DNA from: Cupriavidus necator
GTDB lineage: Bacteria; Pseudomonadota; Gammaproteobacteria; Burkholderiales; Burkholderiaceae
Direction of reading: 5' to 3'
DNA length: 32,000 nucleotides
NCBI RefSeq assembly: GCF_016127575.1
Contig: NZ_CP066020.1
Location: 390,001-422,000, forward strand
Part shown: piece by piece, positions 1,565-29,148 of the stretch
Layout of the letters: each line of letters begins with the position of its first letter
Numbering within the stretch: the first letter of the stretch is position 1
Position numbers and translations under genes: made by a program
The notes under the pieces: generated by a model
What the model was told of the DNA's origin: nothing
The model's database searches: none
Seen by the model: only the letters and a program-made list of their open reading frames with translations

Positions 1565-2605
1565 TTAGAACTGGCCCGTCGAGGACGTGAGGATCGATGA
1601 GAGTGAGTTGGAGCCTAGCTGCAGCACCACGAAAGCAAGGAACATCAGGCCGGTGAAGATCGCCGACATCACCATCCCTTTGGCGAGCAACTGGCGTTCG
1701 ATGACTTCGGCGTTCTGACGCACTGCGACCGTGATCTTTTCGGTGAAGTCATCAAAGCCCGCATACGCGCCGACCTCGTCGATCAGGTCCAGCGACGGAA
1801 ACCCGTTCCCGGTCTGCCGCATGGATTCCGCCAGGTCCAGGCCATCGGCCAGTCCGAGGCGAATCGGTCTCAGACGAGAGGCCAGCCATGGCGATGCCGA
1901 GCCGATCTGTCCCTCCAGCGCGGCAATGTCCGGCACCTTGGCCCGCAACAGCGCCACAAACGACATCGCCCAGGTGAAGCCGGTGATTTCGCGGTACGCC
2001 GTGAACGGGAACACGTGCTGGTCGCAGAATCGCCGGCCCGGGCCGGTCCAGCGCGGCAGCGCCCACCAGCTCCAGACGGCATAGGCGCCGAGACTCCCGA
2101 AGATCACCGGTGCAGGCCATCCCACCGCCAACTGGCCCATCCAGTACATGGCATAGGCCCAGTCGGTCCACTTCCCGATCGGCAGGATGTCGAGAAACTG
2201 CGGCACGATGTAGCCACCGATCAGCAGCAGGACGACATACAGCGTGGCCAGATACACCGTTGGCGCAAAGAAGCTCGCCTGCAGCTTCCGGCGCAGCCGC
2301 GTCGTCAGCTCGCGCACATCCAGCACCAGCCGCATGGCGTCCGGCAGTTGCCCTGCCTTCTCGCCGGCGTCCAGCACGCTGCGTTCCAGATCGCTGAGAC
2401 TCGTGCCCATCGCCGCCATCAGCGCCTTGCCGTCGCGCACCTGGCGCCCGACCTCGTGCGCGGCCTCGGCTGCGCGCTTGCGGCCTCGCCTGTCCTGCCG
2501 CTCCCGGAAGTCCTCAATGACTTGCGCGAGGGTCAGCCCGTTCTCCAATTGGCTCGATGCCTGTTGATACAGGCGCCGGCGCATGGCCCAAGACAATCCG
2601 CTCAT
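1565..2605 (-). CDS. pilR: Type IV pilus inner-membrane platform protein (GspF/PilC family; R64 PilR-like)
   Basis: 346-aa polytopic membrane protein with GspF-like soluble segments (ERSVLDAGEKAGQLPDAM...). Its ATG at 2605 overlaps the pilQ stop (ATGA). It lies between the ATPase and the pilin genes. Confidence 0.8.
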   Translation of the reverse strand: MSGLSWAMRRRLYQQASSQLENGLTLAQVIEDFRERQDRRGRKRAAEAAHEVGRQVRDGKALMAAMGTSLSDLERSVLDAGEKAGQLPDAMRLVLDVRELTTRLRRKLQASFFAPTVYLATLYVVLLLIGGYIVPQFLDILPIGKWTDWAYAMYWMGQLAVGWPAPVIFGSLGAYAVWSWWALPRWTGPGRRFCDQHVFPFTAYREITGFTWAMSFVALLRAKVPDIAALEGQIGSASPWLASRLRPIRLGLADGLDLAESMRQTGNGFPSLDLIDEVGAYAGFDDFTEKITVAVRQNAEVIERQLLAKGMVMSAIFTGLMFLAFVVLQLGSNSLSSILTSSTGQF

Positions 2606-4404
2606 AGGTGCTCCCGCATCGGAATCGCGTCAACGCTTCCCTCAGCGTCGACCGGGCACAGACGACCGGCCAGCACGAGATCCATCGCGTGCGCAATCAT
2701 GGGCTTGTCCGATCCCTCCCGGCGCCGATGATTGCGCCGCGCGGCCAAGACACCGTCGTCGATGAAGTCCTGCATCAGTTGCTCGCTGGTGACGACCACC
2801 TCGGCAACCGCCTGTTGACCAATGATGGCTTGGCCGTGGCAGTGATCGCATCCGCTCCCGCGAACGCGCACCTCAGACAGATCCCCCCACGAGCGCATCG
2901 CATTGAGCATGTAGTCCGGCAGCGGCTCAGACGCCTTGTCGAGGGTGACCGAGCATTTCGGGCAGAGCAGCGGCACAATCCGCTGTGCAATCAGGCCGAT
3001 GATCTGGGTGTGATTGGCGATCACGTCCATAGCCAGACGAACGTGGTCCAGCATCACCAGTCGGGAGAATGTCTCGAACGGGTCGGTCACGTGCAGCGTC
3101 GTGAGTACCTGGTGCCCGGTCGCCGCCGCCTGCAGCGTCGCGATCGCCTCCTCGACGCCACGGATTTCGCCCAGAAGCACCGCATCCGGGTCCATCCGCA
3201 GCGTCATGCGCAGCATCTCCGGGAACCGTTCGCTTTCCGTCGTGAGCTGGATCGCCCAATCCATCGGATACTCGGTCGGGTTCTCGATCGTGATGAGCCG
3301 CTTTTGAGGGAAGAGGCGCGCCTGGTGCCGCGTGCACTCAAAGAGAGTCGTGGTCTTGCCGCTCCCGGTCGGGCCGGTCACGACGATCACGCCCATGGGG
3401 CGGCGCAGCAGCTGCGAGATGAGTTCCACCTGCAGCGGCGTGTAGCCCATCTGGCCGAGCTTGAATTCGCCGCCCGGCACCTTCGGCGTGCGAAGGTCCA
3501 GCCGCTTAGCCGCATCGATGGCATCCGCCTTCAGTGCGCCTTCGTGGTGCTCCCGGTATTGCAGCCGCGCAACAAGGAAGCCGCCGCCGCTCTCCACCGG
3601 GTAGGCCGGTCCGCGCACGATCCGAACACTCGACAGCCCCGTGCCCGGCAGCGCGTCGCCCGCGATCTGGGCGTCCTGCACGTCCAGTGGGTTGTAGGTG
3701 GCCGCCTTCACCGTGGCGAGACCGGTGTATATGGCACGGATCAGGCGTTCGCCCTCCTCGCGGCGCATTGACTGGGCGGAAACTGTCCGTAGATCGCCCT
3801 TGATTCGTACCTGGATCTCGGTATGGTCCTCGCGCACCAGGATGTGAATGTCCGAGGCAACCAGAATGGCGCAATCCGCGATCAGCCGGCGCGCGAGGGT
3901 CAGGGTCTGCAGGTCGGTGTCCTGCTGCTGGCCGGCGCCGCGCTGCTGACGCAGCACGGCAAGCTCCTGCGCGGACACCTTGCGCACTTGCGGAGCCGCA
4001 CCGCTGCGCCGCACCTTGGCTTCCCAGGTCAGAAGCCGCGGCGTGCCGAAATGCCTGGCATCCACGTAGATGTCGCAGCCGTGCACCGCCAGCACTTGCT
4101 GCACGTTGTCATCGGTCAGGCCCAGCTCCCTGGCGACATCCTCCACGTGCAGCCCGCTTTCCGCGACGCGTTGACGAAGCGCCGCCGCTTGGTCAGCCGT
4201 CAGATGGTCGAGGTTGCAGGCAACACGGTCGAAGGTGGCCGGCAGGTTGCGGGGATAGAGGATATGAGGCTCAAGCACCTCCGGAGGCTTCGGCAACGCG
4301 AGCGCATCGGACTTCACCGACGGCTCGGCCCGGGTTGCAAATGCGGTGCCTCGTGCCGACTTACTGCGTGGACTGCGCCACAGACGAGAGATCGTCGCGA
4401 TCAT
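2602..4404 (-). CDS. pilQ: Type IV pilus assembly ATPase (GspE/PulE family; R64 PilQ-like)
   Basis: Motifs: Walker A VVTGPTGSGKTT, DPDAVLLGEIRG, His box LTTLH, and a tetracysteine CPKC...CDHC. I place the start at ATG 4404 (MIATISR...), which overlaps the upstream gene's stop as ATGA. The track ORF extends to 4596, but that would overlap pilO by 196 nt. Confidence 0.9.
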   Translation of the reverse strand: MIATISRLWRSPRSKSARGTAFATRAEPSVKSDALALPKPPEVLEPHILYPRNLPATFDRVACNLDHLTADQAAALRQRVAESGLHVEDVARELGLTDDNVQQVLAVHGCDIYVDARHFGTPRLLTWEAKVRRSGAAPQVRKVSAQELAVLRQQRGAGQQQDTDLQTLTLARRLIADCAILVASDIHILVREDHTEIQVRIKGDLRTVSAQSMRREEGERLIRAIYTGLATVKAATYNPLDVQDAQIAGDALPGTGLSSVRIVRGPAYPVESGGGFLVARLQYREHHEGALKADAIDAAKRLDLRTPKVPGGEFKLGQMGYTPLQVELISQLLRRPMGVIVVTGPTGSGKTTTLFECTRHQARLFPQKRLITIENPTEYPMDWAIQLTTESERFPEMLRMTLRMDPDAVLLGEIRGVEEAIATLQAAATGHQVLTTLHVTDPFETFSRLVMLDHVRLAMDVIANHTQIIGLIAQRIVPLLCPKCSVTLDKASEPLPDYMLNAMRSWGDLSEVRVRGSGCDHCHGQAIIGQQAVAEVVVTSEQLMQDFIDDGVLAARRNHRRREGSDKPMIAHAMDLVLAGRLCPVDAEGSVDAIPMREHL

Positions 4405-5648
4405 TGTTGTTGACTCCCAGCAGGCGGCACTGCGCCATCCCGCATTGCATATAGCCTTCCGGTTCCTTTCCATGCCTGGGCGGCCCCGTCGTAGCTGACT
4501 TCCGTCAGTCGCAGACCCGCCACCGCGTCCAACCCCTCGCCCAAGCCCAACCACGGCGGTGCACCGAAGCCAAAGTCCGCCGTCATTGCGAGCCACGGAT
4601 CAACCGGCGTGTTGCCATCGGCCGGAAGCAGAGGCGGCGGCGAGGTCAGCTGCAAGCCCACGCCGGTACCCTGTGCATACGTCCACATCGAACGCTGCGC
4701 TTCGGCAGGCCGATTCACCGCGCGCGACGAAGGCAGGAAAGCCGCCGGCGCATTTCCGGTCGCCGTCGCTTGATTTCCGTCGGCGGAAAGCGCGCCCGGC
4801 GCGTTGGCTGCCAAACCGCCCTCCCGCTTCCAGGTAATTTCGATCGTCAGGGCCGTCGACGTGGCCGGCTTGCAGCGCCAGCTGGAGAGCGTCCAGCCCG
4901 CGTCCGCGAGGGCCTGGCGGTCCCACGCGCGGCGGCACGCCTGCAGGAAGGCGGTCGGCGTAGCTTCATCAACCCAAGGTACCGCCCGTTGCCGAGCAGC
5001 CTCATTGGCACGCTGCGCTGCAGCGATCGCGCGCTGGCGCATCAATTGCGCCTCGCGCTCAGCTTCCTGCTGCTGGTCGTACCAGTACCACCCGCCCACG
5101 AAAAGGGCCGCCACGCCAGCCGCCGCAGCGACGGTATAGGAAGTCGACTTCCAAGGGCCGGTCAGGACGTCTCGCATAGCTGACACGCCCTTCGACGCCC
5201 GCGCCATGTTCGCGAGATCCCGAACCGTTCCCTCAACCTCCGTCCATTCGCCCAGGGCACGATGCCGCTCGCGGACCGGTGCCAGTTCCTCGAGCGTGCC
5301 AACCCGGTCGCCACCGGCGATGACGGCGTGCCCCTGACGGACGGCGATGTACCAGTAGAGGCTGCCCTGCAGATGAAAGAGCCCCCTCCAAGGCTGGCGG
5401 TGCTGGCCCGCCACGATCGCCGCGAGCGGCTTCAGCCCGGCCGGCTTCGCGCCGGCGATCGCTTCGCAGAAACCGGTCTGGATGGCGCCTTCCGCGCTTT
5501 CATGCACGACGCCCCAGCGCACATTGCGGCCAAGTTCCAGCGCCCTCGCGCGCAGGACGCTTTTGCTCGGCTGCTTTTCCTCGTGATGCCAGGTCAGCCC
5601 GATGGCAAAGCCACCTTTCAGTCCGGGGAATGACAGGATCTCCGCCAT
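4401..5648 (-). CDS. pilO: Pilin accessory protein, PilO (R64/PilO2) family candidate
   Basis: 415 aa with a central TM segment (YTVAAAAGVAALFVGGWYWY) followed by a coiled Q/A/R-rich stretch. Its size, and its position directly upstream of the ATPase, match R64/ICE-type PilO. The family call is from recollection only. Confidence 0.55.
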   Translation of the reverse strand: MAEILSFPGLKGGFAIGLTWHHEEKQPSKSVLRARALELGRNVRWGVVHESAEGAIQTGFCEAIAGAKPAGLKPLAAIVAGQHRQPWRGLFHLQGSLYWYIAVRQGHAVIAGGDRVGTLEELAPVRERHRALGEWTEVEGTVRDLANMARASKGVSAMRDVLTGPWKSTSYTVAAAAGVAALFVGGWYWYDQQQEAEREAQLMRQRAIAAAQRANEAARQRAVPWVDEATPTAFLQACRRAWDRQALADAGWTLSSWRCKPATSTALTIEITWKREGGLAANAPGALSADGNQATATGNAPAAFLPSSRAVNRPAEAQRSMWTYAQGTGVGLQLTSPPPLLPADGNTPVDPWLAMTADFGFGAPPWLGLGEGLDAVAGLRLTEVSYDGAAQAWKGTGRLYAMRDGAVPPAGSQQQ

Positions 5649-5651
5649 CGC

Positions 5652-6317
5652 TCACGGCCTCAGCGTGCGCACGCGCTTGCCGTTGGCAAGCTTTACCCCG
5701 CCGTCGTCGATGCTCACGACCTTCCAGCCACCGTCCAGCGAGTCGCCAGCCTGGACCGGCACCGTGCGGCCGCTGACATCCACTACGGCGTTGTAGTGAC
5801 CATCGAATGCGCGCAACGACACCAGCCGGGGCGCTTCCGGCGCGAGCCGCGGTGCTCGCTCTGCGACGCCGCCCGTCGGCATTGGGCCGCCCAGCGAAAC
5901 CGACGGCACGCCCGCTCCCGGCGGCGCCCCAGCAGGAGCTGCCACCATGGAATCCTCGGCACGCTTCACTTCCGCCTTGAACTTGGCGATCTCGGCGCGT
6001 GCCTTCCACAAGGCCAGTTGGGACTGCAACGCAGCGAGTTCGGGCGCGTCAGTGGTGCGCGACGGTTGTGCCGTCTCCGCGGCAGCCGCTGTGGGTGTCC
6101 CATTGGCCGCCGCTGGGCTACCAGCCACCGGCTGCGCCGCCGAGCCGGTCCCCGCTTGCGACGTCACTGAGCCGCCCCCCGCCGATGCGATCGCCGCTGC
6201 AACAGGGTTCGACATCGTCGACGCCCCATGGGCAGGGACGGTCACCGAGAGGCCGATGGTAGCGGCAATGGCCAGCGCGGCCGGGGTCCAACGAAGATTG
6301 AATGAGCGATTCTGCAT
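5652..6317 (-). CDS. pilP: PilP-like pilus biogenesis protein (signal peptide, A/P/G-rich linker, C-terminal beta domain)
   Basis: ATG at 6317. The signal-like N-terminus is AALAIAATIGLSVTVPAHG, and the C-terminus is LVSLRAFDGHYNAVVDVSGRTVPVQAGDSLDGGWKVVSIDDGGVKLANGK, which is PilP-like. It sits between the secretin and PilO. The O/P order is swapped relative to R64. Confidence 0.5.
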   Translation of the reverse strand: MQNRSFNLRWTPAALAIAATIGLSVTVPAHGASTMSNPVAAAIASAGGGSVTSQAGTGSAAQPVAGSPAAANGTPTAAAAETAQPSRTTDAPELAALQSQLALWKARAEIAKFKAEVKRAEDSMVAAPAGAPPGAGVPSVSLGGPMPTGGVAERAPRLAPEAPRLVSLRAFDGHYNAVVDVSGRTVPVQAGDSLDGGWKVVSIDDGGVKLANGKRVRTLRP

Positions 6318-6332
6318 GGAATGGTCTCTCTG

Positions 6333-8003
6333 TTACAGCAAGCGGGCCGAGATCATGATGGCGATGACCGTGTCTCCCTTGAGGGCACCAACCCCGCCGC
6401 CGAGCGCAGCCATCCACGGCTCACCCACGCCGTTGTTGGTCGTGGAGGCCTTCTGGTTGCGCAGGCCGGTGAGTACCAGCGATTCGCCGGGCTTCAGGGT
6501 GATCGACTGCGTGAACCGGTTGGTCGGCATGGTGCGCAGCTGCACGCTGGTCTGGTTCGCATCGCCGCCCGAGTTGAATCGCTGCAGTGGCAGCAGGTCC
6601 GACAGCGTCATGTCGAAATTCATCAGGATGCGGCCATCGACAACCTTCGGCAGGAAGTTGCTGGTGAAGCCGTAGGTCACCGTTCCGGTCTGTATGGAAC
6701 TGGTGGAACCCACGTTGGCAGCCAGCGTTGTTTGCGACTGCGCGACATAGTCCTGCAGCGTGGCGGTCTGCAGAGCCAGCACCTTGCCGTTCTGCGTCAC
6801 GCCCGAGCGCGATACCACCTGTGACACATTGCCGAGCGTCGAAAGCGCTTGCACCACGGCCTTGCTGCCGGCGAAAGGACCACTCATGATCGTCGCGCCA
6901 AGATTCATGGCGGTGGCGCTCCCTGAAATCGTGGGCGTGCTGACGGAACTGAACGAGACGTCGGGCTTACCGCTAGAGCTTTGATAGGCAAGCGACAGGT
7001 TCAGGCCAAAATTGTCCTCGCGCGTGACGCGCACCTCGTAGACCTGTACGTCGATGGCGACCTGCTTGCCATACATCGCCACGAGGCTCTTGACGAACTG
7101 CTCAATGCGGTCGCACTGCACGGGGTCGCCGGTGACCGTCAGGGTGCCGAGATTCTTGTCCACCACGACGTCGGCGCTCGCGCCAGCGACTGCCTTAGCG
7201 GTCGCCTGCAGCGTCTCCCAGGGCTTCATCTCGGTCGACATCGTCATGGACTGACCGCTTCTTCCCGCCCCGCTTCCACCAGACCCGCCATTGCCTCCGG
7301 CGCCGGCCGTGCCGCCGGAACTGCTGTCCGACGTCGTGATCGAGCCATTCATGGAGGACGAATCCGCGAGGCTCGGCAGCATGAAGGTCCGGGTTTCCGT
7401 CCTGAAAAACGAGACCGTGCCGTCGTTGTAACGAGACCAGACCCCAAAGTGCGCCTCGACGGCATCCAGGAAGCCCTTGAAGCTGCCTTCGTACCTAAGG
7501 GTCAAGGGCACAGACAGCGCCATGCCAGCACCCTGGCCCGACGCAGACGTGCCGGCCAGCGAGGTGGCCAGGTCCACGCGGGGCGTGCCACCCATCGGGA
7601 TAGGACCAGTCGGCCGCGCAGCGCCGGCCGGCTGGGTCGGCGCGGTGCCAGACACAGAGGTTGCGACGGCGGATGCGTCTACAGTCGCACGCACGCCGAT
7701 ACTCTGTGCGATCCAGCTCGCGGCTTCGGTCAACGAGCCCAGCGTGCCCCTGAACACCACATGCTTGTTGTAGATGTCCGGCTGCGGCTTGCTGGCTCGG
7801 ATCTTCTCTCCCATCAGCCAGGCGCCTTCATGCACCCGGAACACCGGGCGGCTGCGTGGTGCATCGGCGTAAGCCGCGTGCGCGTCGCTGCCGATGGTGT
7901 CCTGCAAGTTGCGCGTCTCCATCACACCGCAGCCGGACAGCAGTGTTGCAGCCGCAACGATAGCCGCCGTGTAGCGCGCCGTATTCCTCATCATTTGCAT
8001 CAT
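6333..8003 (-). CDS. pilN: Type IVb pilus secretin lipoprotein (R64 PilN-like)
   Basis: Lipobox LLSGC at the N-terminus, an internal G/S-rich linker (SSGGTAGAGGNGGSGGSGAG), and a large C-terminal beta-rich domain. Alternative starts (GTG 8006, ATG 8003/8000/7994/7991) overlap the upstream stop. Its size (about 555 aa) and position fit PilN. Confidence 0.75.
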   Translation of the reverse strand: MMQMMRNTARYTAAIVAAATLLSGCGVMETRNLQDTIGSDAHAAYADAPRSRPVFRVHEGAWLMGEKIRASKPQPDIYNKHVVFRGTLGSLTEAASWIAQSIGVRATVDASAVATSVSGTAPTQPAGAARPTGPIPMGGTPRVDLATSLAGTSASGQGAGMALSVPLTLRYEGSFKGFLDAVEAHFGVWSRYNDGTVSFFRTETRTFMLPSLADSSSMNGSITTSDSSSGGTAGAGGNGGSGGSGAGRSGQSMTMSTEMKPWETLQATAKAVAGASADVVVDKNLGTLTVTGDPVQCDRIEQFVKSLVAMYGKQVAIDVQVYEVRVTREDNFGLNLSLAYQSSSGKPDVSFSSVSTPTISGSATAMNLGATIMSGPFAGSKAVVQALSTLGNVSQVVSRSGVTQNGKVLALQTATLQDYVAQSQTTLAANVGSTSSIQTGTVTYGFTSNFLPKVVDGRILMNFDMTLSDLLPLQRFNSGGDANQTSVQLRTMPTNRFTQSITLKPGESLVLTGLRNQKASTTNNGVGEPWMAALGGGVGALKGDTVIAIMISARLL

Positions 8004-8506
8004 CACTGAACCATCCCGTTTTGGCTGATAATCACCGTGCGATTGCCGCGCCAGCTATCGCCCACCACGTCCGCACCGTTGTTGGCCAGCTCTTCGACCA
8101 CGCGCTTGACGGCGCTTTCGAAGTCACTGCCGTAGTCCTTGTCGCCGGGCACAATCCAGCCGTCCGGGACATTCCATGCGACGGTCCAACCGGCCCGATT
8201 CGCCCAGTTCTGTAGCTGCTGTTGCAGCGCCTCCCCTTTGACAAGCCGGAACGCCGCACCGACCGTTGGCGCGGCACCCGGCCCTGCCGGCGTGCTCGCC
8301 TTGTTAGGTGCCGCGGCGACCACGGAGGGCGTATTCGCGGCCAGCATGGTCGGGTTGACGGCAGCCTTGGGGGCACGAAGCGGCTGCAGGTGTTGCCAGC
8401 CGTCGTTCGAGAGTTGCGAGGCGTGCACCGCTGGCACAAGGATCAGGCCGCTCAGCAACGATGCTGCGGCGACAGCAATGCGGGTGGTTCGGTTGGATTG
8501 GCACAT
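8003..8506 (-). CDS. TcpQ/PilL-family periplasmic protein (secretin-associated)
   Basis: I use the internal ATG at 8506 (MCQSNRTTRIAVAAASLLSGLILVPAVHA, a signal peptide), because the longer track ORF would overlap the upstream transglycosylase gene. The C-terminus LQNWANRAGWTVAWNVPDGWIVPGDKDYGSDFESAVKRVVEEL...NRTVIISQ resembles the TcpQ/PilL C-terminal domain. Confidence 0.6.
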   Translation of the reverse strand: MCQSNRTTRIAVAAASLLSGLILVPAVHASQLSNDGWQHLQPLRAPKAAVNPTMLAANTPSVVAAAPNKASTPAGPGAAPTVGAAFRLVKGEALQQQLQNWANRAGWTVAWNVPDGWIVPGDKDYGSDFESAVKRVVEELANNGADVVGDSWRGNRTVIISQNGMVQ

Positions 8507-8534
8507 AGCTATGCGTTCGATTGAGGTGAAGGAA

Positions 8535-8969
8535 CTACCGCAAGGCGGCGCGCTGCAGCGCCTGCCACCGCGCATGAATCTGGTTGGCGTAGCGCAACTG
8601 CTTGTCGGGTGAGGAGGCGTTGTAGGCCCCGACCGCTTTCCACGTCGGCCCGAAGCGCTGGATGTTCTCGCGCAGAATCCACGCGCCGACGTAGGCGTTG
8701 ATGCATCCATCAAACAGGTGGGCGCGCGTGATGCCGTACCGGCTCAGCCGCGGCAGGTGGATCGAATTGATCTGCATGAGCCCGATATCCTCCGACCCGT
8801 TCGCGTTTCGACTCGTCACCCACGGCCGCATGGTGGACTCCTGCATCGCGATACTCCGCAGCAGAGATGGGCTGACGCCGTGAAACACCGCGGCATCGTC
8901 CAGGCAGTCGGCATGGGCGACGCCGGTCAGCAAGACCGTGCAGACGACCGCGATCGCGCCTATCCTCAC
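8535..8969 (-). CDS. Lytic transglycosylase (SLT domain; equivalent of R64 PilT / IagB-type)
   Basis: GTG start at 8969 overlaps the upstream stop (GTGA). Signal peptide MRIGAIAVVCTVLLTGVAHA. SLT motifs: AMQES (catalytic Glu), GLMQIN and GAYN. Confidence 0.85.
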   Translation of the reverse strand: MRIGAIAVVCTVLLTGVAHADCLDDAAVFHGVSPSLLRSIAMQESTMRPWVTSRNANGSEDIGLMQINSIHLPRLSRYGITRAHLFDGCINAYVGAWILRENIQRFGPTWKAVGAYNASSPDKQLRYANQIHARWQALQRAALR

Positions 8970-10234
8970 AGCGCCACCTTTCCAGGCTGCTCTTTGAACC
9001 GGACCTGCGGCACACGGTCAACGTAGACCACACTCCCATCCGCGATCACGGTCAGGCGTGCGGCGATGCCGTTGAACCTGTAGTAGCGGTCCTTGAGTTC
9101 GCCGTTGCGCTGGTGTTCATCGCCGAACACCGACACGCTCACCAACGACTTGGCAAAGCTGAGATAGGTCGCACCGTCCTTTTCGAAGACCATTTCCAGA
9201 CCGGCGCCGTTCTGGTTCGGGAACTCATAGTCGATCTCCGGGGTGCGCGTCACGTCGACAGACTTGCCATCCGCCGTCGCCGTGAAGCGATCGACCGTGG
9301 CGAAGGACAGTACGCGCTGGGCCTCGTCCCACCGCGTCCAGATCTTGCTGTCGGATGCGTCCCGCAAGACTAGATCCTTGGGCTCCTGCTCGAATCGGAT
9401 TTCAATGCGGCCCTGCTTCGTGTCGCGAATCGCCAAGGCACCGAAGGCCGATGCCAGTGTCGGGCCGTCAGGCAGCGGTGTCCCGGCTACCGGCGTTACC
9501 GCATCTACATGGCCAGCAGGCAGCGTGTCAGCTGTCGGCGCAGCGGCTTGAAGCTTCCCGTCAGGGGTTGCGGCCGCGACGCCGCCCTCGACCACGGCGA
9601 AGCTCTTCGGCGGCCCGGCGCGCAGCGCGATATTGCGGCGGCTGAAGTCCACTTCCGCATAGAGATTGCGCTGCTCGAGCACGCGGGCGAGTGCCTGCAG
9701 CCAGTTCTCGCCGTCGCGCGTTTCGAGGGTCACCTCTTCGGTCAAGGGGATATCCTTCTGCGCGGTGCCGCTCCAGCCTGCCGGCGCAATCGACTTCACC
9801 AGCTGCGCGAGCGGCAGGTTCGAACGGCCAGCGCGCACCAGGGGCTGGCTGGCATAGCTGCCGATCAGTGCGAGGCGCCCAGAGATTGCGGCGGGGCTAC
9901 GGGCCATCTCGCCCACCGGACTTACTGGCTCCGAGGTAAAGCCGTTCGCACGCTTCCAGCGTGCGACCACCGGCTGGCCGCTGACCGAATAGCGGACGAC
10001 GTCCGGGACGCCGTCGATCACCCAGTATGGGCCACTCTGGATGGCGCCATCGGCCTGCACGGCCTGGCCATGTCGCGGCTGGATGTAGGTCGACAGCCCA
10101 TCGTTAAACACCATGGCAGGGCGATCGGCGGCGCGCGCGACGACCTGATAGTCGAAGTCCAGCGGGTCGGTGTCGGCCGCCATGGCGTGCGTCGCCACCA
10201 GTGCAAGTGCGGAGAGGATTAGCGGCCTGATCAT
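8966..10234 (-). CDS. Periplasmic hybrid protein with two VirB9-C-terminal-like domains flanking a TcpQ/PilL-like domain (422 aa)
   Basis: ATG at 10234 overlaps the upstream stop (ATGA). Signal peptide MIRPLILSALALVATHAMA. N-terminal DFDYQVV...PAMVFNDGLSTYIQP and C-terminal EIDYEFP...LEMVFEKDGATYLSF mimic the VirB9 motif (NFEYSISG...PETAFDDGKALWLRL in the real VirB9 here). The middle segment, LAQLVKSIAPAGWSG...WLQALARVLEQRNLYAEVDF, is TcpQ-like. Confidence 0.6.
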   Translation of the reverse strand: MIRPLILSALALVATHAMAADTDPLDFDYQVVARAADRPAMVFNDGLSTYIQPRHGQAVQADGAIQSGPYWVIDGVPDVVRYSVSGQPVVARWKRANGFTSEPVSPVGEMARSPAAISGRLALIGSYASQPLVRAGRSNLPLAQLVKSIAPAGWSGTAQKDIPLTEEVTLETRDGENWLQALARVLEQRNLYAEVDFSRRNIALRAGPPKSFAVVEGGVAAATPDGKLQAAAPTADTLPAGHVDAVTPVAGTPLPDGPTLASAFGALAIRDTKQGRIEIRFEQEPKDLVLRDASDSKIWTRWDEAQRVLSFATVDRFTATADGKSVDVTRTPEIDYEFPNQNGAGLEMVFEKDGATYLSFAKSLVSVSVFGDEHQRNGELKDRYYRFNGIAARLTVIADGSVVYVDRVPQVRFKEQPGKVAL

Positions 10235-11052
10235 CGGAATTGCGCGACGTGTTTCATGAATCGGGAGAAGTACGGCCCACCGCGCTCCGGGTTCGCGCTG
10301 TGGTACCACGCCACCGCCTTCATGGCGGAGCCGCTGCGTTGCAGGTTCTCGGTCAGAATGTCTTCCGCCACGCGAATGTTCGTGGCCGGCGCAAGCGCCT
10401 CCCATGGCGAAGCGAACCGTTTGCCGTGGTAGCACCAGTTCACCTGCATCAGCCCGACATCGAAATCGCAGCGCTGATTGGCGAGCAGCCGGTTAATGGC
10501 CGCATACGCTTCCTCGCGCGTCGAGAAGAACATGCCGCGACCGGCCACATTGAGCGTCCACGGCCAGGGGCGGCCGCGGTAGGACGACTCGTTCATGGCA
10601 ATGCCCGCCGTGATCCTGGGGTCCACCCGGCTTCCCATCTGCGCGAACGGCTCCGTCTTGGGTGCACACGCCCAACCGCCGCGTCGCTCGGCCAGCGCTT
10701 CCTGTGCGGCATCATTCAGCACGGGTGGGCGCAACCAACCCTCACGCACAAACAACGCGGCGATCGGTACGGTCTTGCCGGCAAGCGTGACGACTGGGCC
10801 TGCCTCCGCACCGGGATCGATCTGCGCACCGAGCAGACGCGCCGACCACCCGAGGAATGGTTCGAGTCCGCAATACAGGACCGGTTTGCCTTCGAGGGTG
10901 TGCACCCGCGCCTGGCCGTCCACCTTCACCACAATGGCGTTCGGGCTAATGACCGCGTCCATCGTTGCAGCTTGCGCGGCAAGCGATGCGACGGCGCAGA
11001 CAACGAATGCTGCGAACCGTTTAGTCACGATAGGCCTCCAGCACGATGTCAT
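10231..11052 (-). CDS. virB1: VirB1-like lytic transglycosylase with an extra N-terminal domain of about 130 aa
   Basis: SLT motifs in the C-terminal half: AMNESS, GLMQVN and AWYHS. The start is either ATG 11052 (32-nt overlap with virB10) or GTG 11028 (giving MTKRFAAFVVCAVASLAAQA, a cleaner signal peptide). Confidence 0.8.
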   Translation of the reverse strand: MTSCWRPIVTKRFAAFVVCAVASLAAQAATMDAVISPNAIVVKVDGQARVHTLEGKPVLYCGLEPFLGWSARLLGAQIDPGAEAGPVVTLAGKTVPIAALFVREGWLRPPVLNDAAQEALAERRGGWACAPKTEPFAQMGSRVDPRITAGIAMNESSYRGRPWPWTLNVAGRGMFFSTREEAYAAINRLLANQRCDFDVGLMQVNWCYHGKRFASPWEALAPATNIRVAEDILTENLQRSGSAMKAVAWYHSANPERGGPYFSRFMKHVAQFR

Positions 11053-12262
11053 GCTTGACCTGGACCATCATCCTTTGCCCGGGATCGGTCGTGATGGTCG
11101 GCCGGATATTCTGGTTGCGGTTCAGGATGGTCTGTGCCGTCTGCGTGGCAATTTGACCCGCGGCGTTTCCATAAGCGACCAGACCGGCCGGCCCGACGGT
11201 GGTCGTCGTCGGGTTATCGTTGAAACGAAGCGACAGCGCACCGATCACCAGCGCACCGCTGAAGATCCTCAAGAAGTGGTTATTGACGTCGCCGCTATTA
11301 CCGGCGGTCCCATCTGGATCGGCACCCTGCATCCCCAGGAGCGGCACGGTTTTGCCGTTGGGCAGTTGCATGCGCACGAACGCCGTGAGAAGGCGCTCCT
11401 GCCCGACAGCAATGTCCGCGCTATACATACCGACCAGCGTGCTGCCGGCAGGGATCACCTTGCAGGTACCCTGCACGGTGTCGTAGATGTCCTGGGATAC
11501 GGTGGCGCGGAACTCGCCGGGCTTGTCCGAGTTCAGGCCACCGGCGAACGTTGCGGGGATGACGAAGCCTCGGCTGACCGTGCATTTTGGCAACTTGCCA
11601 TCGAAGCCGGTTCGCAAGGTGCTCATGCTGCCGGCGTCGCGCAGGAACTGCCGGTCACCGGAGACTTGCTGTGGCGTCGCGTTGTCCTGTGCAAGCGCGG
11701 CCGCATTCGCCGCGCCCTGGCGAGCGGCCACCGCTTGCTGGATCGCACGCATTTGCGCAGGGTCCGAGACATCCGCAATCCCGGCAGGCACACGCCCTTG
11801 ATTCAGTTGAGACTTGCGCGCGCCGGACTTGAACACCGGCGCCGTGAATAGATCATCCTCCTCGTTCTTCTTGGCATCTACCGTGGGCGCAGCTTTTCCA
11901 CCGCCGTTCAGATCGGCAGCAGTTAATACCGGCTTCTTGGTGTCCGGCACAATGGCTTCCTTGCGCTGCTTGTCGGCTTCCTCGCGGGCCTTGTCCGCCT
12001 GAGCGCGAATCGCCGCCTCAAGGCTTTGCCCAGTGTCAGCATTGCCCGCGCGCTGCTTGATCTGATCGGCACGCGCCTGTTCGGCCTTCGCTTCAAGCTG
12101 CTCGTCCGTGATGGTCTGGAAGTAGTAGCCCAGGACGCCCACCAGCACCGCCGTGATGCCGCCGAGAGCGAACATCACGTTGCGGGGCAGCTTCCCTTTC
12201 ACGGTTCGTACTTGCACATCGCTCACGGAAGCTGCATTCGGATCCATTTTCGAGGCGCGCAT
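11021..12262 (-). CDS. virB10: T4SS VirB10/TrbI family protein
   Basis: N-terminal TM (VMFALGGITAVLVGVLGYYF), a charged coiled region, and a conserved C-terminal beta-barrel region (...GTAGNSGDVNNHFLRIFSGALVIGALS...). The ATG shares one nt with the virB9 stop (TGATG). Confidence 0.9.
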   Translation of the reverse strand: MRASKMDPNAASVSDVQVRTVKGKLPRNVMFALGGITAVLVGVLGYYFQTITDEQLEAKAEQARADQIKQRAGNADTGQSLEAAIRAQADKAREEADKQRKEAIVPDTKKPVLTAADLNGGGKAAPTVDAKKNEEDDLFTAPVFKSGARKSQLNQGRVPAGIADVSDPAQMRAIQQAVAARQGAANAAALAQDNATPQQVSGDRQFLRDAGSMSTLRTGFDGKLPKCTVSRGFVIPATFAGGLNSDKPGEFRATVSQDIYDTVQGTCKVIPAGSTLVGMYSADIAVGQERLLTAFVRMQLPNGKTVPLLGMQGADPDGTAGNSGDVNNHFLRIFSGALVIGALSLRFNDNPTTTTVGPAGLVAYGNAAGQIATQTAQTILNRNQNIRPTITTDPGQRMMVQVKHDIVLEAYRD

Positions 12263-13182
12263 CAGAACAATCCCAGAACGCGACGACGGCCCCGCTCGAT
12301 CTTGATCTCATCGTCACCGGAGCGCAGGACGATGGTATCGGCGAGGCGCTGCACCACCAGATAGCCGCCGCGGCGGATCTGGTTGACCACGACAAAGTCG
12401 CTGCCGTCCTTCACCAGCGCGACCGGCCAGCTCTGCAACGCGGCGGCAGGCAGTCGTAGCCAGAGCGCCTTGCCATCGTCGAACGCGGTCTCCGGCTTGA
12501 AGCTGGCGGTGCCGGAAATGGAATACTCGAAGTTCAGCTGGTCCGGCGACACCCCGACGGCGTCAGGGTTGCGCGCTTCGGCCCCGGCTGACCTGGCATC
12601 CTCCCCTTGCTCGTCGCGCGCATCGTTGCGCGCCTTGACCTTGGCCGAGATGGAGGTCGGAATGCGGAAGCGCACTTTCTGGTAAAAGATGCCGCCCAGC
12701 GGCGAGGACACCAGCGTGAACTCGTAGCTACGCTTATTCGTGTTCACCGACAAGGTATTGACGAGACCCGCCGCCTGCGGCTTCACATAGAGATGGTTGG
12801 CGCCATCCGTGTCGTAATCCCAGCGCACGTTCTCGCCCCATGCCGGGTCGCCAACGATCTGCTCATCGTCCGGGAACTCGATCGTTGTGACTTTCAGAGG
12901 CGCGCTCAGCACGCGGAAGATCTGGTCGCGGCTGTACGTGAATACGACGAGGCGTGAATCACCCGGCAACGCGATCGGATCGACACCGCCGTTGAACGGG
13001 TTGCCCGGGTTCATGGCATCGCTCAGATCGCCGATGCCAAGGCCGGCGACGCCTGCGCCGAGGCGTCGCCCATTCTTTTCCGCCGCGTTGCCATCGGGGA
13101 TGGAGAGCAACAGTGCCAGGCCAAGGGCGATGGCCAGCGGGAGAAGTCGGGAGGGGGTGCGCGCTTCCATGGGCATTTGCAC
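12262..13182 (-). CDS. virB9: T4SS VirB9/TrbG/CagX family protein
   Basis: Signal peptide. Motifs SRLVVFTYSRDQIFRV, TTIEFP, NHLYVKP and RSYEFTL, plus a C-terminal domain (NFEYSISG...FDDGKALWLRL...LVVQRLADTIVLRSGDDEIKIER). Possible starts are GTG 13182, ATG 13176 or ATG 13170. Confidence 0.9.
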   Translation of the reverse strand: MQMPMEARTPSRLLPLAIALGLALLLSIPDGNAAEKNGRRLGAGVAGLGIGDLSDAMNPGNPFNGGVDPIALPGDSRLVVFTYSRDQIFRVLSAPLKVTTIEFPDDEQIVGDPAWGENVRWDYDTDGANHLYVKPQAAGLVNTLSVNTNKRSYEFTLVSSPLGGIFYQKVRFRIPTSISAKVKARNDARDEQGEDARSAGAEARNPDAVGVSPDQLNFEYSISGTASFKPETAFDDGKALWLRLPAAALQSWPVALVKDGSDFVVVNQIRRGGYLVVQRLADTIVLRSGDDEIKIERGRRRVLGLF

Positions 13183-13185
13183 GGC

Positions 13186-13893
13186 TCAGGCCGCAGATTT
13201 CTGGATGGAGAAGAAGATGGGGAAGACACCAAAGGGGTTCGTCCCGAGCATGGCTTCCTTGTCCGCCGGCTTGACCTGATAGCGGAACGTGATCGCGTAC
13301 CGCTGCTTGCGCGGCTTGTACCCATCCTCGGTGGTCGTGGTCACGAATTCCACAACCACGGTGCTATCGGGCAGGCTGGCAATATTGGTGAACTTCGGTT
13401 CCCGGGTGAGCGTCGGCGCCGACATCACCTGCCGGAACGGCTCGTCTTCATCCACCCATGCCTTGAACTGCTCCTTGGCCGATCCCAGCATCTGCTCTCG
13501 CACCGACCGCAGATTCCCCGCCATGCGCGACGACTCGATCTGAGGCGTCAGAATGGGCTCGATCGTGAACCACCGCTGCACGAGGTCCTTGAGCGCAACC
13601 TTCACCTGTCGTTCATCCGGATGGAATGCGTCCAGTTCACGAGTGATCGGCTTCCCGGTCGCATCCGCCGAAACGCCAACGACCTTCACCACCGACGGCG
13701 GCGGCTCGCGGGTCAGAATCGCCGCGAGTGCGACGCACGCGGCGCCGACCGTTGCGAGCTTCCAGTGATTGCGGTCCACGGTGATGCGCGTGGTCCGATC
13801 GAAAATGACTTGCTCTGGACGCTCTTCGCCATACATACCTGGCGCAACGGTCAGGGGCTTGGCTTTGTCGGTGGATCTGCGTAGGAATCGCAT
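13186..13893 (-). CDS. virB8: T4SS VirB8 family protein
   Basis: I use ATG 13893 (MRFLRRSTDK...), because the track start at 13968 is a TTG. It has a single TM (WKLATVGAACVALAAILT) about 45 aa in, followed by a periplasmic NTF2-like domain. It is the first gene of the leftward operon. Confidence 0.85.
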   Translation of the reverse strand: MRFLRRSTDKAKPLTVAPGMYGEERPEQVIFDRTTRITVDRNHWKLATVGAACVALAAILTREPPPSVVKVVGVSADATGKPITRELDAFHPDERQVKVALKDLVQRWFTIEPILTPQIESSRMAGNLRSVREQMLGSAKEQFKAWVDEDEPFRQVMSAPTLTREPKFTNIASLPDSTVVVEFVTTTTEDGYKPRKQRYAITFRYQVKPADKEAMLGTNPFGVFPIFFSIQKSAA

Positions 13894-14271
13894 GATGCGG
13901 CGGGCTTTTGGGATGCCGCTAATTGAATCAGCGAAATGGCATGCATCTGCCCTCGAAAGCTGTGCCAATTTGCTGAGCTTTCCAATTTTCCTCTCGCTTC
14001 ACCTCAATTTGATACCTCCACAGCCGTCGGGATGGCTCGCCCAGCGCCAGCCGCTATGCCGCCACCCGATTCCCCGCGGCGAAGGGCGCCAGCGAGGTGT
14101 CTACCTTCGAAAGCTCAGGATTTGACCGCGTCATTCGCTATCCTGAGAAGGAACATGTTCCTCTTGCTACGACTTGAGCGGACCGGCGCCGCACGACTTC
14201 GTCAAAAGCTCTTGAAAATCGCCTAGCTTTCAGTCGACTACAGGACCGTTTGCCCGCCAACAATAGCGGGC
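13894..14271. promoter_or_regulatory. Divergent control region between the virB8-to-pil operon and the virB11-to-tra operon; contains candidate operators
   Basis: 378 bp with no convincing ORF. It holds a perfect 14-bp palindrome AGGAACATGTTCCT (14149-14162). Directly beside it is an 8-bp inverted repeat, CTCAGGAT (14114-14121) / ATCCTGAG (14140-14147). I cannot call clean sigma70 -35/-10 hexamers. Confidence 0.55.
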
Positions 14272-25746: not shown

Positions 25747-25885
25747 TGTGACATGGTGTCACTTGGTGTGAGCTGGTGAGACCACGTGGGACATGATCTC
25801 ACTTCCGAACGAATCAATAGGCGTCGACATCTGCCCCGAGGTACCACTTCGGGGCACTTGCTGTTTTGAACCGGCACCAAGTGCC
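25747..25885 (+). promoter_or_regulatory. Cluster of inverted and direct repeats upstream of the helicase gene (candidate operator, oriT or terminator)
   Basis: - TGTGACATGGTGTCAC (25747-25762, containing the palindrome GTGACA-tgg-TGTCAC).
- A related TGGGACATGATCTCAC (25787-25802).
- GTGAGA (25776-25781) / TCTCAC (25797-25802).
- Palindrome CCACGTGG (25782-25789).
- Hairpin GCCCCGA-n9-TCGGGGC (25833-25855).
- Hairpin GGCAC-caa-GTGCC (25873-25885). Confidence 0.45.
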
Positions 25886-25910
25886 ACTTACTGCCACACT
25901 GCGATCCGCC

Positions 25911-27638
25911 ATGTCGCTCGAAAAGGTATTGGAAGGACTGAACCCCGCCCAGCGCGAGGTGGTCGACCTCCGTCAGCACTGCGTCGCCGTGGCCGTGCCA
26001 GGCGCCGGAAAGACAGCGACGATTGCGGCCAAGGCAGCAGTGCTGCTCGCCAACCCAGACGTGACGGTGGGCGCGGTAACGTTCAGCAAGGACGCCGCGG
26101 TCGAATTGCGTGACCGGATCCTGGCGCTAGCCGGTGCCGATGCCAGGAAGCGACTGCTCGCGGGCACCTTTCATTCGCTGGCCTATAAGCAGCTCGGGAA
26201 GGGAACCGGCAAGCTCACCGATATCGTCCACGACGGCGTTCGATTCGCTATCGTCGGGCAGATCCTGCAGGAAGGGGGATTTGATGGGAAGGTCGAGGAC
26301 GCGATCGCCGCGATTGAGCGCGCCAAGATGCAACTGTCCGACCCGCCTTCAGGAACCGTGGAGGCTCAGTTGTATGAAGCCTACCAGAGTGCTCTGGCCC
26401 GAAACGGCAAGATCGACTTTCAGGACATGCTGCGGTTGGCTGTAGCTGGAATGCAAAGCGGAACAATTGCGCCCTACCGTATGACGTACCTGCTTGTCGA
26501 TGAGTACCAGGATTGCGACAGCTTGCAATCACGCTGGACGGCGCTGCACGCGGCGGCCGGTTCGATAGTGACGGTGGTCGGGGACGATGATCAGTCGATC
26601 TACGGATTTCGAAGTGCGCTCGGATTTCGAGGCATGGAGGCATTCATCAAAGAGTTCGACGCGCGGTCAGTCATCCTCGGGAAGAACTACCGCTCACATG
26701 CCGAGATCCTGGACGTCGCGGATCGGGTCATTCGAAACAACGAGGACCGTATCCTGAAGGAGCTGGTAGCCCATCGCGGGCCTGGCGGCGCTATCGAGTT
26801 CAAGCGTTTGGAGGACGAGTACAAGGAGGCGGTTTCGGCCGTTGAGGCGCTGACACCGGTTTTGCGGGCTGGCAAAACGGCGGCCGTGCTGGCGCGGACG
26901 AACCGCATTCTCGATCCATTGGAGGCCGTCTGCCGCTCGCACGGTGTCAAGTATTACAGGGCAGCCGGCCGCTCTATTCTCGATCGCCCGGAGGCAGCGT
27001 TGATGGGGGACCTACTGGAACTGATTCAGAAGTCCAAGGACTCTGGCACCGATGCCCTGCTAGGTTTCGCCGGAATTGGCTCGCATGAACTGCAGCTGCT
27101 ACACACGCAGACTGCGGCGAAGCCGGAGGGATCGATTCCGCGAAAAAAGAACCTGGTGCAGGCCGGGATCGCAGAAGCAACAGTCGACAAGTATCGCGAC
27201 TTCCTAAAGAAGCTGGCGGAATGGCAAGCGCTCTTTGAGCGCCAGTTCTTTTCCCTCGTTCTCGATGGCGTGCGCGAATGGATGCTCAAGTTTGTTGCGG
27301 ACGACCCGGGCAAGCGCGCTATCAATACCGCGTTTGACGTCCTGACGCGGCTGAACGGTCCATTTTCGGAACGACTCTTGTTTCTGCGCCAAAAGAATAA
27401 CGAACCGGCCGACGACGCCTTGGTGCTGACGACCATGCATGCCTCCAAGGGACGCGAATGGTCGGCTGTTGTTGTGATCCGGGCCGAGGAAACCATCGTT
27501 CCGGACGAAGCCAGTCCGGAGAGTGAGGAGCGTCGACTGTTCTACGTTGCCCTCACGCGCGCGCGCGACTGGCTGCAGATTTCTACGGCAAAGAAGAACC
27601 CCACGTCCCGGTTCGTTATTGAAGCCGGGCTAACTTGA
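25911..27638 (+). CDS. UvrD/Rep/PcrA-family (SF1A) DNA helicase, short form (575 aa)
   Basis: I use ATG 25911, because the track start at 25866 is a TTG. Motifs: AVPGAGKTAT (Walker A), LLVDEYQDCD, VVGDDDQSIYGFRSA, KNYRSH, LTTMHASKGREW, RRLFYVALTRARDWL. Confidence 0.9.
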   Translation: MSLEKVLEGLNPAQREVVDLRQHCVAVAVPGAGKTATIAAKAAVLLANPDVTVGAVTFSKDAAVELRDRILALAGADARKRLLAGTFHSLAYKQLGKGTGKLTDIVHDGVRFAIVGQILQEGGFDGKVEDAIAAIERAKMQLSDPPSGTVEAQLYEAYQSALARNGKIDFQDMLRLAVAGMQSGTIAPYRMTYLLVDEYQDCDSLQSRWTALHAAAGSIVTVVGDDDQSIYGFRSALGFRGMEAFIKEFDARSVILGKNYRSHAEILDVADRVIRNNEDRILKELVAHRGPGGAIEFKRLEDEYKEAVSAVEALTPVLRAGKTAAVLARTNRILDPLEAVCRSHGVKYYRAAGRSILDRPEAALMGDLLELIQKSKDSGTDALLGFAGIGSHELQLLHTQTAAKPEGSIPRKKNLVQAGIAEATVDKYRDFLKKLAEWQALFERQFFSLVLDGVREWMLKFVADDPGKRAINTAFDVLTRLNGPFSERLLFLRQKNNEPADDALVLTTMHASKGREWSAVVVIRAEETIVPDEASPESEERRLFYVALTRARDWLQISTAKKNPTSRFVIEAGLT

Positions 27639-27957: not shown

Positions 27958-29148
27958 ATGAGCTATCGCTTCGACGGGCTTCCTATTGCCCCAAGAACAA
28001 CAACGTGTGGCGGTGCGCCGCACTCTCCGGCCCCTATCGAAAGCGAAGCTTCGAAACGCAAGGCAGCCAGGTGCGATGCCCGCCGGCTGCCCGAGCGGGT
28101 TCTCAGAGCGATCGCGTTGGTCTACGAGTCCGATGGGCTTCGGGCTTTGCACATCACCAATCGCCAAGTCTTGGCAACGCTCATCCGCTTCGCTCTGAAT
28201 CAGAAGGATCCTACCTCGCTCGCCTTCATAAAGAAGGCAACGATCGCGCAGCACCTCTCGATTAGCGAGGCCACTGTCTATCGGGCGCTTGGCACACTTG
28301 AAGATGCCGGGCTTATTGAGCGTGAAAGGCAGCAACGCACGAGGGCGCAGCTCGAGGTCGTTGGGCGGATCGGGTTCACCGCAAAGTTGCTACAGTGTAT
28401 CGGGCTCGCCGGCAGGGAGCTTGGGTACCCAGAACCTCAAACGGACTCCGACGAGTCGCGGTCCCGCTCCGCATGTCTCGCACCAGTGAGTGGCGTAAAC
28501 AACCCCAAGCAGTCTTCTACGAAGAAACATTCGGGCCCGAGAGAGTTTGTGCAAATTCACGATCGGGCTGTGCCCATTGATCTAGCGCCTCTCGTGCGCG
28601 ACCAAGAGCTGACGACGTCCGCCCTCTTCCTTCTGATGCGGCTCGCGAGAGAGGCCGGCCACAGACTGTCGGACGTTGTCTCGGCGGCGGGTCATGTTCT
28701 TGGGCCGCTGCGGGGACGAGAGCTGTTCGCCTACCTCAAGTCGCTCCTCGGAAAGCCCATAGACTATAGCTATGTCGTTCAAACTCGGAAGGCCCAAGAA
28801 GACGAGAGGCGCGCAACCGCCGCGCAGGCGGCGCAAGACCGGCTGGAGGTTGCCCAACTCGTTGAGCGATACCGTGGGCAACGGGTGTCCGCACCTGACG
28901 GTCGGATCTACGAGGTCGACTCGGCCTCGATTGTGATCACCGAGGCCAACGGTCGGCGGAGTTCATTAGGGCACGACCAGGCGCGCGCCTGGCTGATCGA
29001 GATGGACAGAGCAGCGACTGGGCTCTCGCGTGCCTTGGCCCAGCCGTCGTCAGCGACACGGTCATCGTCGGCCATGGCACAGGCCGCTATTGAGCAACTT
29101 CGCAGCATCCTCGGTGGCAGACCTGCACCCAACATGGTAGGTGGCTGA
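27958..29148 (+). CDS. Winged-helix/HTH DNA-binding protein (396 aa), function unknown (regulator or auxiliary replication protein)
   Basis: Contains an HTH: KKATIAQHLSISEATVYRALGTLEDAGLIERE. A second helical region (LTTSALFLLMRLAREAGHRLSDVV) suggests tandem winged helices. The start is uncertain because the Shine-Dalgarno is weak. Confidence 0.65.
   Translation: MSYRFDGLPIAPRTTTCGGAPHSPAPIESEASKRKAARCDARRLPERVLRAIALVYESDGLRALHITNRQVLATLIRFALNQKDPTSLAFIKKATIAQHLSISEATVYRALGTLEDAGLIERERQQRTRAQLEVVGRIGFTAKLLQCIGLAGRELGYPEPQTDSDESRSRSACLAPVSGVNNPKQSSTKKHSGPREFVQIHDRAVPIDLAPLVRDQELTTSALFLLMRLAREAGHRLSDVVSAAGHVLGPLRGRELFAYLKSLLGKPIDYSYVVQTRKAQEDERRATAAQAAQDRLEVAQLVERYRGQRVSAPDGRIYEVDSASIVITEANGRRSSLGHDQARAWLIEMDRAATGLSRALAQPSSATRSSSAMAQAAIEQLRSILGGRPAPNMVGG

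Follow-up and report, generated by a model that had tools for sequence, protein, structure and literature searches.

A conserved protein of VirB9-type and PilL-type modules at the junction of conjugation and type IVb pilus genes on the Cupriavidus necator megaplasmid pHG1

On R64-type conjugative plasmids a separate type IVb pilus holds mating pairs together in liquid. How such a mating-pair pilus is coordinated with the DNA-transfer channel is a question raised by a 32,000-nucleotide stretch of Cupriavidus necator DNA (the window), which is 100% identical to megaplasmid pHG1 of strain H16 (NC_005241.1; window coordinates are NC_005241.1 coordinates minus 358856). Both machines are encoded there as one gene string, and the gene at their junction, H16_RS33220, specifies a 422-amino-acid (aa) protein, hereafter the seam protein, built from β-sandwiches of the VirB9 C-terminal domain (CTD) type and a PilL domain. 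The modules belong to known families, and what is new is their combination in an uncharacterised, conserved junction protein. Tentatively, we read it as a PilL-equivalent accessory of the pilus secretin complex.

Four folded modules in the seam protein

The translation, a Sec-type signal peptide and the RefSeq coordinates agreed with the initial annotation on the open reading frame (ORF), a secreted 422-aa product on the minus strand (Table 1). The longest ORF at this place, 489 aa with a GTG start at 10435, was rejected and ATG 10234 preferred, since the latter yields a proper signal peptide and agrees with all homologues and with RefSeq. The N-terminus reads MIRPLILSALALVATHAMA followed by ADTDP after the cleavage site. 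The signal peptide is free of cysteine, and among the seam protein family, for which we retrieved 96 homologues, just 4 of 97 members had a lipobox-like motif. By its sequence the protein is predicted to be exported via Sec, periplasmic and not lipidated. Four-base overlaps, both found on checking the sequence, support the translational coupling that had been reported on each side, to the upstream SLT-like gene (ATGA, 10231-10234) and to the downstream SLT gene (GTGA, 8966-8969); the two flanking genes are different lytic-transglycosylase-type genes. RefSeq names the protein 'TrbG/VirB9 family P-type conjugative transfer protein', older records 'pilus assembly protein PilL', and the original pHG1 annotation PilL. 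Because 'PilL' and 'TrbG/VirB9 family' each already capture one module, we regard the family as annotated but uncharacterised.

AlphaFold2 with a 20-sequence alignment gave four folded modules: N (residues 27-94, all β), M (120-206), C1 (259-335, β) and C2 (336-417, β), with disordered linkers at 95-116, the shorter of the two, and at 210-256. The protein had been described as having three parts, a layout that missed the fourth folded module seen in these models, C1 (257-335).

Module N carried the clearest homology. Against Pfam CagX it gave a sub-threshold match (residues 20-54, E 0.0015), and weak CagX matches recurred in 20/20 diverse family members at profile positions ~111-150 (best E 3e-6). 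The N hidden Markov model (HMM) also matched the start of the CTD in the window's own VirB9 (residues 214-243). With enriched domain alignments, built by profile search of 1.84 billion representative proteins, hhalign placed N on the VirB9 alignment at a probability of 99.1% and E 1.6e-18 over 81 columns, onto residues 208-299 of the window VirB9, an alignment that spans the entire CTD. As negative controls, unrelated alignments were set against those of N, M, C1-C2 and TcpQ, which gave E 0.01-0.7. On this difference in E value, sequence comparison identifies N as a genuine VirB9-CTD homologue, and the N-terminal VirB9-CTD copy proposed in the initial annotation stands. The N, M, TcpQ and C1-C2 alignments showed no similarity to the PilN alignment (E 0.02-0.7), a comparison that also served as a negative control.

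The second, C-terminal copy proved real and in the proposed register, though divergent. Enriched N and C2 alignments matched each other at hhalign 95% and E 3.4e-8 over 71 columns, and the N and C2 HMMs cross-matched each other's domains in several relatives, but the direct hhalign comparison of C2 with VirB9 was weak (E 0.008). An AlphaFold2 model of residues 256-422 alone reached a predicted local distance difference test (pLDDT) score of 93.2. Foldseek searches with this C1-C2 model returned the VirB9 CTD of Xanthomonas citri (2n01_B; template modelling score, TM, 0.54), the CagX CTDs 5h3v_A and 8cb2 (root-mean-square deviation 3.9-4.7 Å) and the TrwF CTD 7o3j_B, each with probability 1.00 and a modest E (5e-3 to 9e-2). 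We take C2 to be a VirB9-CTD-like domain of divergent sequence that did not arise by recent duplication of N.

C1 had no sequence similarity to VirB9 or N by hhalign and no sequence relative outside the C1-C2 module. The one clue to what C1 is came from Foldseek, which aligned 178-200 columns of the pair with two full-length VirB9 structures, 6gyb_B and 8rt6_B (E 5e-3 to 2e-2, probability 0.99-1.00); generic tandem-immunoglobulin proteins scored similar E. In the models C1 and C2 form a rigid β-sandwich pair that, taken as a whole, appears to match full-length VirB9 best. We do not claim an internal repeat: a match of C1 (~313-335) to C2 (~390-412) at E 1.8e-5 and 78% covered only ~23 columns and was not reproduced with enriched alignments, and a stronger one (E 7e-11) was discarded as an artefact of compared slices sharing residues 330-335. 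No curated Pfam or NCBIfam model covers C1-C2, and profile searches of PDB sequences with the family and with M gave chance matches only.

The identity of the central module differs from the earlier reading, which had taken it as TcpQ-like. No Pfam TcpQ match was found at E<0.1 in the seam protein or 20 homologues, M against a TcpQ-domain alignment including the 167-aa neighbour reached ~1% by hhalign in local, permissive and global modes, and BLASTP found no match between M and the TcpQ domain. Instead, the M HMM matched R64 PilL at residues 92-185 (50 bits, E 4e-17), and BLASTP aligned residues 119-276 of the seam protein to 94-263 of R64 PilL at E 4e-7 (R64 is NC_005014; its PilL gene lies at 44592-45659 on the minus strand of locus L007). 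R64 PilL has a Pfam TcpQ domain at 264-350, downstream of the M-type domain, and by BLASTP the 167-aa neighbour aligns to its residues 234-326. The same order recurs in 190-280-aa 'TcpQ' proteins, in which M is the first domain and Pfam TcpQ the second. These alignments identify M as the middle domain of R64 PilL. With M in the seam protein and TcpQ in the 167-aa neighbour, pHG1 splits the two domains of PilL over two genes.

No Pfam or NCBIfam model exists for M, and in a few relatives weak Pfam STN matches overlap M-type domains. Its modelled secondary structure fits an N0/STN-like fold, of which a β-α-β-β-α-β-β pattern is expected. Proteins of the TcpQ/BfpG type are N0-like; they assemble as a 17:17 ring on a lipoprotein secretin, whose lipidated N-terminal linker they bind by strand addition (PMC12531336). 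If M is N0/STN-like, M and TcpQ would thus share a fold class while still being different families. M-type domains also occur in P0191, P0205, P0216, P0223, P0235 and P0241, and M occurs twice in 440-850-aa proteins with FimV_N or weak STN matches. A word-indexed homologue search with the M alignment returned no scored matches.

No curated Pfam or NCBIfam model covers the entire seam protein, and the searchable literature contained no description of its architecture or of any function, in line with the earlier remark that no described type IV secretion system (T4SS) or type IV pilus component is known to have this architecture. Nor does the whole protein match a characterised family. It resembles VirB9/TrbG/TraO/CagX proteins in that N is homologous to the CTD β-sandwich, C2 has the same fold and C1-C2 may resemble the two-sandwich layout of full-length VirB9. 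It differs in having two CTD-like modules plus a PilL domain and in a C1 unlike the VirB9 N-terminal domain by sequence. We rejected an ordinary VirB9 paralogue on these extra modules and on scores below the CagX cut-off (PF03524, 18.8 vs 34.2 bits) and the VirB9/TrbG NCBIfam cut-offs (TIGR02781 and TIGR02775, 13-20 bits vs 180-388).

With R64 PilL it shares the M domain and a gene that opens the pil block, ahead of pilN. R64 PilL is, however, a lipoprotein (LLSGC) that ends in TcpQ, whereas the seam protein has an ordinary signal peptide, has TcpQ in a separate gene, and possesses the β-sandwiches N, C1 and C2, of which R64 PilL retains at most a short 'PALVFVDG' remnant of N. An ordinary full-length PilL was rejected for want of a lipobox and a TcpQ domain. 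TcpQ/BfpG proteins (PF10671) share the operon neighbourhood, and N is fused to TcpQ in other lineages, but M has neither profile nor pairwise similarity to TcpQ and precedes it in two-domain proteins. Closest in composition are the X. citri VirB7-VirB9 and Legionella DotD-DotH pairs, which likewise combine a VirB9-CTD-type sandwich with an N0-like TcpQ/DotD-type domain (the latter in seam relatives). Those are separate lipoprotein and periplasmic T4SS subunits, whereas the seam protein is one non-lipidated chain encoded beside a pilus secretin gene.

Conserved position and shuffled relatives

Close homologues (40-100% identity) were confined to Burkholderiaceae, in Cupriavidus, Ralstonia, Paraburkholderia, Caballeronia, Burkholderia, Robbsia and Pandoraea. 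By tblastn 95 plasmid records matched, including pMOL28 and plasmids of B. vietnamiensis G4 and B. cepacia ATCC 25416; one Azonexus plasmid among the 95 matched via the N domain alone. Among the carriers are pRALTA-type megaplasmids and plasmids of the Burkholderia cepacia complex. Plasmid records with this VirB9 clade numbered 81 at >=80% coverage, about equal to the seam protein set (77-95 records). Searching plasmids by tblastn with distant N-domain proteins recovered the Burkholderiaceae family again and nothing else. The pMOL28 genome paper describes a 'pil' region only weakly like known pil genes, which may be its own kind of conjugative system (PMC2864759).

We scanned one genome per species with a motif derived from a 7-sequence N alignment, which gave 36 loci, all in Burkholderiales. 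N-M-C1-C2 proteins (subtype i) were encoded in 28/36, and in 4/36 the seam protein was N-C1-C2 (subtype ii, 346-381 aa), without M. VirB10 lay at most two genes upstream in 33/36 loci, and PilN lay downstream in 27 of the 31 loci having at least 4 kb of flank. The SLT-seam-SLT order was kept in all subtype-i loci. At the N-C1-C2 loci no SLT gene flanked the seam gene, except in B. gladioli (L011), where the downstream SLT was kept. Three species loci had no detectable PilN in ~9 kb of downstream DNA. Four loci (L006, L019, L026 and L034) look decayed or rearranged; in L006 (metagenome, 8296-12297) VirB8, SLT and the seam protein are followed by an integrase, and VirB9 and VirB10 are absent. 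A hybrid of T4SS and type IVb pilus modules at the seam, as first proposed, holds in its hybrid nature and in its position, which is kept across the 36 loci and distant plasmids, with the correction that the pilus module is the PilL middle domain and not TcpQ.

The fused virB8-9-10/tcpQ-pilN module reaches well beyond Burkholderiaceae, into other Beta- and Gammaproteobacteria, with shuffled junction proteins that commonly combine N with one or two TcpQ domains. The junction is N-…-TcpQ-TcpQ on Hydrogenophaga pPBL-H3_B4-1 (L051, 8123-14782), N-OmpA-like-TcpQ in Pelomicrobium (L013), and N-…-DotD-like followed by an M-TcpQ protein in Azonexus (L012). On Thioalkalivibrio pTK9001 (L052, 8111-14914) a 168-aa lipobox protein with an N domain precedes an N-TcpQ protein. 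Some relatives sit beside one machine. In L010, a Ralstonia insidiosa plasmid, a C1-C2 protein opens the pil operon ahead of SLT, TcpQ and PilN with no adjacent virB, and in L020, a betaproteobacterial metagenome-assembled genome, an N-domain protein stands directly upstream of the secretin, preceded by dehydrogenase genes. In L014 (metagenome contig k141_1802477, 10001-13237) virB4 and virB6 are separated by three genes, whose products are N-…-TcpQ-like (323 aa), a lipoprotein (247 aa) and TcpQ-like (246 aa), and a secretin is not found within 10 kb, a layout from which accessory proteins of N0-like and VirB9-CTD-like domains may also serve a T4SS alone. Lastly, the metagenomic protein P0112 (480 aa) joins C1-C2, the VirB9-like pair, to a DotC-like domain (E 1e-60 to Pfam T4SS_TraI), which makes it a fusion with a homologue of a type IVB cap lipoprotein.

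Candidate roles at the virB-pil junction

The role we favour, as plausible but tentative, makes the seam protein the equivalent of PilL, a structural accessory to the secretin complex of PilN and TcpQ that uses VirB9-type sandwiches as building parts. The PilL middle domain is present, and the seam protein and the 167-aa TcpQ protein together supply both domains of the R64 PilL chain. PilL's place is also occupied, the gene being the first of the pilus block and immediately ahead of (SLT-)tcpQ-pilN. Covalent fusions of N to TcpQ are seen in other lineages, and lipoprotein secretins are known to have TcpQ/BfpG proteins as ring partners. Relatives open pilus operons without adjacent virB (L010 and L020), and in the genome scan the family occurred just where a secretin follows, a few rearranged loci apart.

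We infer location, partners and ring formation as follows. The seam protein would be a structural accessory subunit of the conjugative type IVb pilus machine, at its outer-membrane side, and together with TcpQ would surround the periplasmic portion of PilN, the lipoprotein secretin. As in T4SS caps, its VirB9-type sandwiches may form a ring and take up strands of partner proteins by β-augmentation. A candidate partner is PilN's lipidated N-terminal linker, which could be clamped as the VirB9 CTD clamps VirB7.

Other observations weigh against this assignment. The best-supported homology, that of N, points to a T4SS cap protein and not to a pilus protein. Subtype ii lacks M, which is missing from the neighbouring TcpQ protein too, so the conserved core is the VirB9-like part. 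P0150 (L014) lies inside a virB operon that has no secretin within 10 kb, P0112 joins C1-C2 to a DotC-like cap protein of a type IVB secretion system, and the seam gene itself is translationally chained to virB10 via the upstream SLT gene.

In an alternative that we consider unlikely, the seam protein would be a cap subunit of the T4SS, as an extra VirB9 paralogue or a stand-in for a missing VirB7/TrbH in or around the VirB9/VirB10 core complex, and the PilL-type domain would be a secondary acquisition. The N homology favours it, as do the best Foldseek matches of C1-C2 to full-length VirB9 from X. citri and R388. In caps, the N0-like domains of X. citri VirB7 and DotD are paired with VirB9-CTD-like ones (in part PMC12531336). 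It also gains from virB10 preceding the seam gene in nearly all loci of the scan, from N-C1-C2 being a viable architecture without M, from the N-…-TcpQ protein inside a virB-only operon (L014) and from the DotC-like fusion in P0112. No VirB7/TrbH-like lipoprotein was detectable in the window, where a lipobox scan of all ORFs gave PilN alone, in agreement with the initial annotation, and on Ti-type plasmids trbH comes after the more distant TrbG genes.

Weighed against a cap subunit are the scores far below the VirB9 family cut-offs (18.8 vs 34.2 and 17-20 vs 180-388 bits), the canonical VirB9 already encoded, the occurrence in the species-genome scan only where PilN follows (given a long enough contig and a few rearranged loci apart), and the relatives that open pilus operons without adjacent virB. 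VirB7/TrbH is a small outer-membrane lipoprotein, and the extended tail of VirB7 is clamped by the VirB9 CTD. The seam protein has no lipobox and is ten times the size of VirB7. Being large and without a lipid anchor, it is unlikely to be a strict replacement for VirB7, and the earlier suggestion to that effect fares poorly.

We also find doubtful that the seam protein is a physical adaptor, with M (and TcpQ) on the PilN secretin and with N and C1-C2 inserted into or docked on the VirB9/VirB10 cap, tethering the pilus beside the DNA-transfer channel. The domain content is compatible with such a link between cap and secretin, which the initial annotation had also proposed. 'Rosetta-stone' logic speaks for such a tether, T4SS-type and pilus-type modules being in one chain with long flexible linkers, and so do its strictly conserved place where virB passes into pil, within one string of overlapping genes in the same orientation, and the nearly equal numbers of plasmids with the VirB9 clade and with the seam protein. 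However, the pilus-only (L020 and L010) and virB-only (L014) relatives indicate that the modules do not need both machines, and subtype ii lacks M.

It is highly improbable that the seam protein is a scaffold for cell-wall remodelling, placing the lytic transglycosylases of the flanking genes so that peptidoglycan is opened for the secretin or the T4SS. Each neighbouring gene is of SLT type and translationally coupled to the seam gene, in an order kept in all subtype-i loci, but subtype-ii loci have the seam protein without SLT genes, and the seam protein has no peptidoglycan-binding domain, OmpA-like matches being found in other relatives only.

The transfer region and its bearing on conjugation

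The minus strand of the window carries one co-oriented string, VirB8-VirB9-VirB10-SLT-like-seam-IagB/SLT-TcpQ-PilN-PilP-PilO-PilQ-type ATPase-PilR-type platform-prepilins, and the plus strand carries VirB11, B2, B3, B4, TrbJ, VirB6, MOBH TraI and TraD. VirB9 had been placed two genes upstream of the seam gene; it is actually three, with the SLT gene and VirB10 intervening. The N-terminal ~130 aa of the upstream SLT-like protein are without a family match. For the TcpQ gene a longer ORF exists (8003-8713 minus, 236 aa, TTG start); the annotated 167-aa form is probably correct, given a plausible signal peptide at its start. The string includes two tandem genes annotated as type IV prepilins. Adjoining the transfer region are genes for a replication initiator (Rep3-type), a helicase (UvrD-type) and a winged-helix regulator. 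Rep3 and parAB flank virB8 in relatives from Caballeronia and Pararobbsia too, which places the transfer module in a shared plasmid backbone.

Table 1 Features of the seam gene and its surroundings, in window coordinates.
Feature	Position	Strand	Remarks
Seam protein gene, N-M-C1-C2	8966-10234	minus	422 aa; H16_RS33220, WP_041688744.1; same RefSeq coordinates
Sec (signal peptidase I) signal peptide, residues 1-19	10178-10234	minus	…THAMA/AD; read from translation; no lipobox Cys
Module N, residues ~22-100	9935-10171	minus	VirB9/TrbG C-terminal β-sandwich homologue by sequence; AlphaFold2 all-β, pLDDT 73-86
Module M, residues ~117-208	9611-9886	minus	PilL-type α/β domain by sequence; β-β-α-β-β-α-β-β (AlphaFold2)
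Linker, Ala/Pro-rich, disordered, residues ~210-256	9467-9607	minus	AlphaFold2 pLDDT <50; length varies among homologues
Module C1, residues ~257-335	9230-9466	minus	β-sandwich, always paired with C2
Module C2, residues ~336-418	8981-9229	minus	Divergent VirB9-CTD-like β-sandwich
VirB8/TrbF	13186-13968 (RefSeq start 13893)	minus	Pfam VirB8, E 1.2e-33
Canonical VirB9/TrbG	12262-13182 (RefSeq start 13170)	minus	Pfam CagX, E 1.8e-48
VirB10/TrbI	11021-12262	minus	Pfam TrbI, E 2e-50
Upstream lytic-transglycosylase-like gene (273 aa)	10231-11052 (RefSeq start 11028)	minus	Weak Pfam SLT, SLT_3
Downstream IagB/SLT-type lytic transglycosylase (144 aa)	8535-8969	minus	Pfam SLT, E 7e-20
Exported TcpQ-domain protein, 167 aa	8003-8506	minus	Pfam TcpQ, E 1.5e-23, residues 85-162
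PilN-family type IVb pilus secretin	6333-8006	minus	TIGR02520, E 6e-78; lipobox LLSGC
PilP, PilO, PilQ-type ATPase, PilR-type platform	1565-6317	minus	Pfam, NCBIfam, RefSeq
Annotated type IV prepilin genes, two in tandem, 166 aa each	436-936 and 1028-1528	minus	No Pfam match at E<0.001
UvrD-type helicase	25866-27638	plus	
Winged-helix regulator	27958-29148	plus	
Rep3-type replication initiator	29539-30906	minus	

PilL has been listed as a lipoprotein of unknown function (PMC6232867), and the analysis of M and the seam protein offers a first functional handle on it. Two domains without a curated model are defined here, the PilL middle domain (M) and the C1-C2 module. If the seam protein is indeed a secretin accessory, VirB9-type sandwiches would have been co-opted into secretin complexes. 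Should it prove to be an adaptor, a direct connection of a T4SS with a conjugative pilus would be known for the first time, and the channel and the type IVb pilus would form one outer-membrane supercomplex in widespread hybrid virB-pil modules.

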